IMG/VR virus record: IMGVR_UViG_2534681703_000017
Strand: one strand, 5' to 3'
Source of the DNA: a virus
Taxonomy: Duplodnaviria > Heunggongvirae > Uroviricota > Caudoviricetes
DNA length: 36,962 nt
Part shown: positions 20,691-21,757 of the stretch, in pieces
Layout: each line of letters starts with the position of its first letter
How positions within the stretch are numbered: the stretch's first letter is position 1
Notes under the pieces: model-generated
What the model was told of the DNA's origin: nothing
The model's database searches: none
The model's input: the letters and a program-made list of their open reading frames with translations, nothing else
Program-made: the position numbers and the translations under genes

Positions 20691-21122
20691 ATGTCTTACG
20701 CCACACCGGAACAGTTCATCAGGGCGTTCAGTGAACGCGAGGCGCGCACACTGACGGATGAAGACATGACGGGATTCATCGACGAAGAAAAGCTGGCCTC
20801 TGCGCTTGCACGTGCCAGTGCCCAGATTGATGGCTATCTGGTGGGGCGTTACCGGACCCCGTGGCCTGACAGCCCGGGGATACTGGTGGGTTACTGCTGC
20901 GATATCGCCCGTTATCACCTGGCGACCGATTACCGTATCTGCTCAGAAGAAATTCAGATGCGCTACCGGGATGCCATCCGCTTTCTGGAGAAAGTCGCGG
21001 CAGGACAAATCAACCTCGGACGGGATACGTCCGGCAGCGTGATCCAGTCATCGTCACAGGTGCGTATCCGCTCCGGCTCCCGTCAGTTCGGGCGTGAGTC
21101 CACGCGGGGAGGTGCATTCTGA
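20691..21122 (+). CDS. Mu gp36-like protein (DUF1320-like), head-tail joining candidate
   Basis: 143 aa in the Mu J/K position between head and tail genes. Confidence 0.5.
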   Translation: MSYATPEQFIRAFSEREARTLTDEDMTGFIDEEKLASALARASAQIDGYLVGRYRTPWPDSPGILVGYCCDIARYHLATDYRICSEEIQMRYRDAIRFLEKVAAGQINLGRDTSGSVIQSSSQVRIRSGSRQFGRESTRGGAF

Positions 21123-21175
21123 TTACTGACATTGAACGGGCGCTGGTTGAGCGTCTGCGCTGTGGTCTGGGGCAT

Positions 21176-21757
21176 ATGATGCAGGATGTCCGCACCTATG
21201 CCGGTGAACTGGATGAAGACCCGGGCCGGATTGTTCGCAGCCTTCCGGCAGCCTGGGTGACGTTCGGCGGCATCGTGAAAACCGAACGCTATTCCACGTC
21301 ACGCCGGAAATACATTGCCACCGGACGCTTTGTGGTTGTGGTGGGTGATTACAACACCCGCAGCGAACAGAGCGCCAGACAGGGAGGCACTGTCCGGGAT
21401 GAAGTCGGGACAAACCAGCTTGTTGAATCCGTCCGTCGCCTGCTGACCGGTCAGGATTTGGGGCTGGAGATTGATTATTTCGAACCCGGGCGGGTCAGGA
21501 CGCTGTTTAACACCGGCGTGGCAGAGCGGGCAATGTCCGTGTTTGCCTGTGAGTTCGATACCCGCTGGGTGGAGCACGCGCTGGAGAACGGCAAATGGCC
21601 GGAGCGCGGCGCAGAAGCGGACCGTCTCTTCAACCGCTACCACGGCAGGCTGTCAGACCCTGACCCGGATTTACTGCGAATTGGTACGCAATACGGCGCA
21701 GATATCTGTGGTCTGGATGAATTAAGAGAGCAACAGCATGAACAAAATGAAGGTTAA
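21176..21757 (+). CDS. Mu gp37-like protein (DUF1834-like)
   Basis: 193 aa (from first ATG); the frame stays open upstream to 21119 (ITDIERALVERLRCGLGH), so a non-ATG coupled start is possible. Confidence 0.5.
   Translation: MMQDVRTYAGELDEDPGRIVRSLPAAWVTFGGIVKTERYSTSRRKYIATGRFVVVVGDYNTRSEQSARQGGTVRDEVGTNQLVESVRRLLTGQDLGLEIDYFEPGRVRTLFNTGVAERAMSVFACEFDTRWVEHALENGKWPERGAEADRLFNRYHGRLSDPDPDLLRIGTQYGADICGLDELREQQHEQNEG

Follow-up and report, generated by a model that had tools for sequence, protein, structure and literature searches.

The gp36/gp37 junction of the prophage

The window, i.e. the whole stretch of 36,962 nucleotides that was analysed (IMG/VR record IMGVR_UViG_2534681703_000017), is a complete Mu-like prophage, the host group of which is E. 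coli. The repressor, ner and transposase genes occupy its left side and are followed by a tightly packed late operon, in which the conserved neighbourhood of Mu-like head and tail genes is present (major head protein gpT, FluMu_N, Gp36, Gp37, DUF2635, sheath and tube). When the phage collection was searched at the DNA level, the one match was weak (69.6% identity over 18% of the query), and no close sequenced phage was found there. The junction between the gp36-like and gp37-like genes includes the following features.

20691-21122, + strand: gp36-like head-tail adaptor gene, 143 aa (Pfam PF07030 Phage_Mu_Gp36, 114.5 bits; PHROG phrog_195, head-tail adaptor; PGAP 'gp436 family protein')
21095-21097, + strand: in-frame TGA, the upstream bound of the gp37 frame (from the translation and codon list)
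21108-21114, + strand: Shine-Dalgarno (SD) sequence GGAGGTG, ending 4 nt before CTG 21119 and 7 nt before ATT 21122; kept in relatives with a TTG start
21119-21121, + strand: CTG, the most likely initiation codon of the putative tail terminator gene; TTG at the identical position in relatives, CTG in 38/38 lineage members, used by PGAP in RM9088 and NC_011601.1
21119-21757, + strand: full gp37-like putative tail terminator coding sequence, 212 codons and a TAA stop (Pfam PF08873; NCBI contains an identical 212-aa protein, named 'DUF1834 family protein')
21120-21122, + strand: TGA stop of the gp36-like gene, overlapping the start of the next gene
21122-21124, + strand: ATT, second codon (for the nearly invariant Ile of the family), also an alternative near-cognate start (from the sequence and the family alignment)
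21122-21178, + strand: codons 2-20, ITDIERALVERLRCGLGHM, the disputed extension and Met20; predicted helix 1 of the terminator fold
21176-21178, + strand: ATG of the internal Met20 (GLGxM motif), the first canonical start and the start of the 193-aa annotation

Codons 21122-21175 encode ITDIERALVERLRCGLGH, and the 19 codons at 21119-21175 read L/M-ITDIERALVERLRCGLGH; after CTG 21119 and ATT 21122 the gp37 frame encodes TDIERALVERLRCGLGH, and a tandem ATG ATG is located at 21176-21181. In the initial annotation the gene was called from ATG 21176, with the remark that its frame is open back to 21119 and overlaps the previous stop. The overlap stands, but the open stretch is longer than was stated by seven codons, since the frame is open from 21098 to ATG 21176. 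None of the codons at 21098-21175 is an in-frame ATG, GTG or TTG according to the translation and codon list. With stop triplets accounting for 3.75% in the window, 19 open codons would be expected by chance in about 48% of cases, and thus the openness of the frame is no evidence by itself. A start at 21119 produces a 4-nt CTGA overlap (21119-21122) with the gp36-like gene; overlaps of 4 nt are typical of this late operon, whereas a start at 21176 would leave a gap of 53 nt.

Start codons of related genes

The gp37-like gene, putatively encoding the tail terminator of this Mu-like prophage, is probably translated from CTG 21119, giving a protein of 212 residues that begins with fMet-Ile-Thr-Asp-Ile-Glu, and not from ATG 21176. 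A perfect 7-nt SD sequence, GGAGGTG, is situated 4 nt upstream of CTG 21119, inside the end of the gp36-like gene, while no SD match of at least 4 nt was found upstream of ATG 21176. Among 55 loci from other species, a canonical start lies 0-9 codons from the aligned residue 1 (ATG in 29, TTG in 18 and GTG in 8 loci). The closest relatives read ...GGAGGTGCATT-TTG-ATN-ACN, with TTG at the exact nucleotide position of the CTG in the window. They include sequences of Citrobacter, a metagenome contig and Yersinia (L061-L063, L066-L067), as well as of Trabulsiella, Intestinirhabdus, Buttiauxella, Xenorhabdus, Photorhabdus, Morganella and Edwardsiella (L005-L012), and share both the 4-nt overlap on the gp36 TGA (TTGA) and the GGAGGTG sequence; other relatives have TGATG. 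The proteins of the TTG-start orthologues (Citrobacter, Yersinia, Trabulsiella, Morganella, Xenorhabdus, Photorhabdus) are 56-90% identical to that of the window and begin with MIT(D/E/Q)IE, and their junctions conform, like that of the window, to GGAGGTGCATT-NTG-ATN-ACN with a 4-nt overlap on gp36. They differ from it in the first base of the start codon, which is T in these relatives (a canonical weak start) and C in the window. This single T-to-C change is silent in gp36 (TTT to TTC, Phe). As judged from the aligned junctions, CTG 21119 is derived from an ancestral TTG. The codon following the start (Ile2) varies synonymously among the relatives (ATT, ATC or ATA). Initiation at CTG 21119 or ATT 21122, linked to the end of translation of the preceding gene, had already been proposed in the initial annotation. 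The proposed start site is supported, on comparative grounds, by the orthologous TTG position and by the N-termini of homologues, with CTG as the more likely of the two codons, and the 4-nt overlap makes the coupling plausible.

The TTG start was observed in 18 of the 55 species-level loci (L005-L060), i.e. in 33%, compared with about 4% among annotated bacterial genes. In each of the 18 loci it occurs in the context GCATT-TTG-AT and is preceded by a strong SD sequence. Judging from these alignments, a weak start appears to be conserved for the low-copy terminator in Enterobacterales.

Conserved N-terminus of the Phage_Mu_Gp37/DUF1834 family

The 212-aa form matches PF08873 (Phage_Mu_Gp37/DUF1834) with 162.3 bits and the 193-aa form with 139.6 bits, both above the gathering threshold of 25 bits, so that the extension adds 22.7 bits. 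The match covers profile positions 2-148 of 149 from residue 2 of the long form, versus 21-148 when the protein begins at ATG 21176; a full-length domain, including profile positions 1-20 with the N-terminal helix, was obtained only with a start at 21119 or 21122. Residues E6, R12, L13, G16 and G18 are invariant in an alignment of 37 sequences, and I2, A8 and M20 are nearly invariant; all of them are present in the protein of the window. The earlier impression that the upstream codons read like genuine protein is thus substantiated by the gain in the Pfam score and by the presence of every family-invariant residue.

Nearly all of the 120 homologues listed begin with M-I-T/I-x-I-E-x-A-L/I-x-x-R-L-x-x-G-L/M-G-x-M, and the handful with an inner Met or a later start are shorter calls of close relatives. 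The alignment with homologues that had been suggested as a check therefore places their N-termini at a MITDIER-like sequence in nearly all cases, and not at the MMQDV position. Some homologues (P0061, P0071 and P0095, for example) have Leu or Ile in place of Met20, indicating a position of the hydrophobic core rather than a conserved start. The same replacements were the reason for ruling out Met20 as an alternative start conserved in the family.

By sequence, synteny and predicted fold, the gp37-like protein is a member of the Phage_Mu_Gp37/DUF1834 tail terminator family. Sequence searches of the PDB returned no match, either with the family profile or, at E values up to 10, with the single protein, and no NCBIfam model matched the 212-aa or the 193-aa form.

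Predicted fold and role as tail terminator

The AlphaFold2 model of the gp37-like protein had a pLDDT of 81 and a pTM of 0.74, and residues 2-20 were predicted to form helix 1, with block pLDDT values of 95/94. The top Foldseek matches were the terminator of phage Mu (9khy, E = 3e-7, and 9lj8), followed by 2gjv, the pyocin R2 collar, T5 p142 and lambda gpU. The lambda gpU-like tail terminator fold was thus recognised on the predicted model only, and the link to solved terminators came from the fold search only, not from the sequence search of the PDB.

Phage Mu gp37 (Mup37; PDB 9khy, 9lj8; PMC11915804) shares with the protein of the window the PF08873 domain, the predicted fold and the N-terminal helix motif T/I-E-x-A-L-x-x-R, and the order of genes is the same: gp36 adaptor, gp37, DUF2635/gp38, sheath and tube. 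Mu gp37 begins with MLEETEAALLARVR at the position equivalent to the CTG start, and its start also overlaps the gp36 stop, although the Mu ATG is part of a 1-nt TGATG overlap whereas the CTG in the window is part of a 4-nt CTGA overlap. The Mu protein comprises 182 aa versus 212 aa in the window, and the structure-based sequence identity between them is about 16%. In Mu, gp37 was identified by cryo-EM as a hexameric tail terminator which caps the tube and sheath and docks on the gp36 adaptor; six copies are present per virion, and gp36 and gp37 are separate chains (PMC11915804). By homology to Mu gp37, the gp37-like protein of the window may assemble into a hexameric ring, capping the tail tube and sheath and docking on the gp36 adaptor.

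The family carries the label 'portal protein' in PHROG phrog_490 and in the RefSeq record of Mu (NC_000929.1 Mup37, L095 2455-3003). In the cryo-EM structure of Mu, gp37 is the tail terminator and gp29 is the portal (PMC11915804). The label looks like a propagated mis-annotation, and the fold predicted for the protein of the window matches terminators.

Conservation of the CTG codon and the extension in the Escherichia lineage

The Escherichia lineage was sampled with a search pattern that lay entirely within the end of gp36 and left the first base of the start codon free. The resulting 38 members (the window, 7 E. coli genome or contig loci, 21 IMG/VR contigs and 9 metagenome contigs) all have CTG at this position (38/38). 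They represent eight haplotypes of the extension, and no stops or frameshifts were found in it in any of the 38. Four polymorphic codons of the extension are purely synonymous, and amino-acid changes are restricted to positions 4 (D/E) and 19 (H/K/E), both of which are variable in the family.

By minimum-mutation counting, the extension has 4 synonymous and 4 non-synonymous changes (per-site ratio 0.40), versus 45 synonymous and 22 non-synonymous changes in codons 20-166 (per-site ratio 0.16), with no significant difference between the two regions (Fisher p = 0.44). A neutrality test of the extension by itself was not significant (binomial p = 0.17), while the 4 non-synonymous changes observed in it compare with a neutral expectation of about 15 at the gene-wide synonymous rate (Poisson P = 0.0008). 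The clade with CTG spans at most 5% nucleotide divergence, so the selection signal within it is modest; furthermore, the metagenome scan contributed no more than 9 members, none of them with a new extension haplotype, which makes the within-clade test a weak one. Most of the weight in support of a coding extension is carried by the family-wide conservation seen in the alignments, to which the within-clade signal adds modestly.

In the window, codon 21179-21181 is ATG (Met21, 'MMQDV'), while all other sampled members of the lineage have GTG (Val, 'MVQDV' or 'MVREV'). The exact protein of the window with Met21 is nevertheless found on dozens of public contigs.

Proposed initiation at the CTG codon and coupling to gp36

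In E. coli reporters, UUG supports 10-100% of the initiation obtained with AUG, and CUG, AUU, AUC and AUA support 1-2% (0.02-3% across reporters) (bioRxiv 10.1101/063800). Since CUG is far weaker than UUG in these reporters, the T-to-C change should lower de novo initiation. The proposed sequence of events is that TTG was converted to CTG by one T-to-C transition, silent in gp36, and that the new codon was then retained throughout the Escherichia lineage. The GGAGGTG sequence in the end of gp36 would position ribosomes at CTG 21119, and, as start and stop overlap in the form of CTGA, ribosomes finishing gp36 would probably re-initiate there; de novo initiation at the CTG is also possible, as a strong SD sequence is present. 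A weak start might be tolerable, and perhaps even favoured, because only six copies of the terminator are needed per virion. The fixation of CTG, the TTG of the orthologues, the SD sequence, the conservation and the homology are seen directly in the data; the use of CTG for initiation, the coupling to gp36 and the dosage rationale are what we infer from them.

Overlaps of 4 nt between stop and start with termination-reinitiation are a described class (PMC6728339). The ATGA-type coupled pairs of this class resemble the gp36/gp37 pair in being co-directional, in the 4-nt overlap and in having products that contact each other in the particle (adaptor and terminator), and differ from it in the overlap itself, which is CTGA in the window. 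A review of translational coupling contained nothing on near-cognate restart codons. The RNA fold of 21060-21190 revealed no unusual structure (z = +0.51), and coupling through unmasking of the ribosome binding site is therefore not indicated. Verified CTG starts in E. coli K-12 are those of hda and yfjD (EcoGene 3.0, PMC3531124), for which, similarly to the gene of the window, a CUG start was deduced from conserved coding upstream of the first canonical start and from a plausible ribosome binding site. Hda and yfjD are, however, chromosomal housekeeping genes, while the gene of the window is a late phage gene putatively coupled to the upstream reading frame.

A tentative explanation, possible but less likely than not, concerns the finding of a lineage-fixed CUG, about ten-fold weaker than the ancestral UUG in reporters, on an essential structural gene: either ribosomes terminating on gp36 might re-initiate almost regardless of the start codon, or a lower dosage of the terminator might have been selected.

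Alternative products of the junction

Initiation at the neighbouring ATT 21122 would give 211 residues with the N-terminus fMet-Thr-Asp-Ile-Glu and leave the CTG as a dead remnant of the former TTG start. AUU and CUG fall into one efficiency class, and Hecht et al. (bioRxiv 10.1101/063800) describe AUU as the only non-canonical start confirmed in E. coli (infC, pcnB); in addition, the codon starts 7 nt after the SD sequence, which is in the working range, and is invariant in 38/38 lineage members. We nevertheless regard this start as unlikely, given that the orthologous start in the TTG relatives is the preceding codon, that ATT corresponds to Ile2 of these relatives, a residue that hardly varies in the family and whose codon is synonymously variable like an ordinary sense codon, that the SD spacing is nearer the optimum for 21119, and that verified CTG starts do exist in E. 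coli. More doubtful still is the proposal that the TTG-to-CTG change killed the original start, with only ATG 21176 or 21179 being used (192 or 193 residues, without helix 1) and the upstream frame persisting as an undecayed remnant. ATG is the first canonical start, chosen by gene finders and in about 21 of 55 PGAP annotations, CUG is a very weak initiator, and the extension-only neutrality test was not significant; moreover, limited decay would be expected in this case, since the clade is young (at most 5% divergence). ATG 21176, however, has no SD sequence, and the shortened protein would lose a helix that carries five invariant residues and is among the most confidently predicted parts of the fold. 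The 38 members are also free of stops, frameshifts and changes at conserved positions in the extension, its non-synonymous changes fall well short of the neutral expectation (P = 0.0008), and Met20 is Leu or Ile in some relatives.

A combination of both, i.e. two proteoforms, the long form initiated at CTG or ATT and the short form at ATG 21176/21179, might be envisaged from the tandem ATG ATG at 21176-21181, which follows a run of GGGG, all the more so as weak upstream initiation would leave the mRNA free of ribosomes for internal initiation. It appears quite improbable: the inner site lacks a real SD sequence, the GGGG run is a necessary consequence of the codons for the conserved G-L-G, other members of the lineage have ATG GTG and not ATG ATG, and nothing suggests a role for a terminator without helix 1. 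Hardly credible is a gp36-gp37 fusion that would arise if ribosomes shifted into the -1 frame close to the end of gp36, even though gp37 is read in the -1 frame relative to gp36, with 7 open codons ahead of the gp36 stop, and a GGAGG of the kind present at some frameshift sites is located just upstream. No slippery heptamer X XXY YYZ occurs in 21098-21122 (codon list, by inspection), and such a fusion was rejected for this reason; tRNA-Phe on UUC would also be unable to re-pair in the -1 frame (AUU), every relative has a start codon of its own at this site, and gp36 and gp37 of Mu are separate chains. Initiation at CTG 21119 thus remains the preferred reading.

Other features of the late operon and the prophage

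The DUF2635/gp38-like gene (21738-21980), which follows the terminator gene, has an inconsistent start in PGAP annotations: the protein is of 80 aa in RM9088, corresponding to 21738 of the window, and of 69 aa (21771) in other genomes. The 80-aa form matches PHROG phrog_208 with its residue 1 at profile position 1 (1-63 of 64), and this match favours ATG 21738 as the likely start, with a 20-nt overlap with the terminator gene.

The tail tube gene is followed by a gene at 23778-24161 (127 aa), a gap of 162 nt and the tape-measure gene (24324). The -1 frame is open over the last approximately 35 codons of the 23778-24161 gene and further on to 24334. By analogy, region 23778-24334 has the classic layout of a putative tail assembly chaperone with a programmed frameshift (lambda G/GT type); a strict X XXY YYZ heptamer was not found in its zero frame. 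Two further gaps of the late operon, at 17702-17858 (155 nt before a protease/scaffold-like gene, whose longest ORF begins with GTG 17858) and at 29788-29842 (53 nt before 29842), could be due to wrongly placed starts or to small genes.

In complete E. coli genomes the prophage module was found in 58 places, 2 of them on plasmids, probably NZ_OZ547097.1 and NZ_OZ547049.1 (H66 and H67; about 249 kb, the only records of plasmid-like size among those listed). The plasmid locations fit Mu-type transposition into any replicon.

Public annotation and significance of the start site

The public annotation of the gene is divided. PGAP reports the 212-aa form with the CTG start ('DUF1834 family protein') in RM9088 and in the E2348/69 record NC_011601.1, versus the 193-aa form ('phage protein Gp37') in other genomes with identical junction DNA, including a second assembly of E2348/69. 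Among 55 RefSeq complete E. coli genomes with the prophage, about 34 have the long and about 21 the short form, as counted by product name; in 5 records the correspondence between name and protein length was confirmed. Proteins identical to the long and the short form of the window are present in NCBI on 47 and 43 contigs, respectively.

The 212-aa CTG start is therefore an ordinary start-site correction, a known kind of feature that is already in public databases, though inconsistently. Its novelty is confined to two minor aspects, namely the descent of this lineage-fixed CTG from an ancestral TTG and the recognition of the extension as the predicted first helix of the terminator. It is mainly the quality of annotation that benefits: the 193-aa call, made in about 40% of RefSeq complete E. 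coli prophage carriers and likewise by Prodigal-type gene calling on metagenomes, deprives the terminator of its first helix, and the 212-aa form is advised for expression, modelling and proteomics.

The gene also provides a clean comparative example of a near-cognate CUG that arose from UUG and was kept throughout a lineage, extends the very short list of E. coli genes with a CUG start by one candidate, and offers a simple system for testing how far translational coupling tolerates weak start codons. If restart almost regardless of the start codon, or selection for lower dosage, does operate here, the junction would be a natural and genetically tractable case for the study of start-codon stringency in termination-reinitiation in E. 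coli, and the family-wide preference for UUG (33% of loci) would be a device that sets the dosage of a six-copy virion protein.
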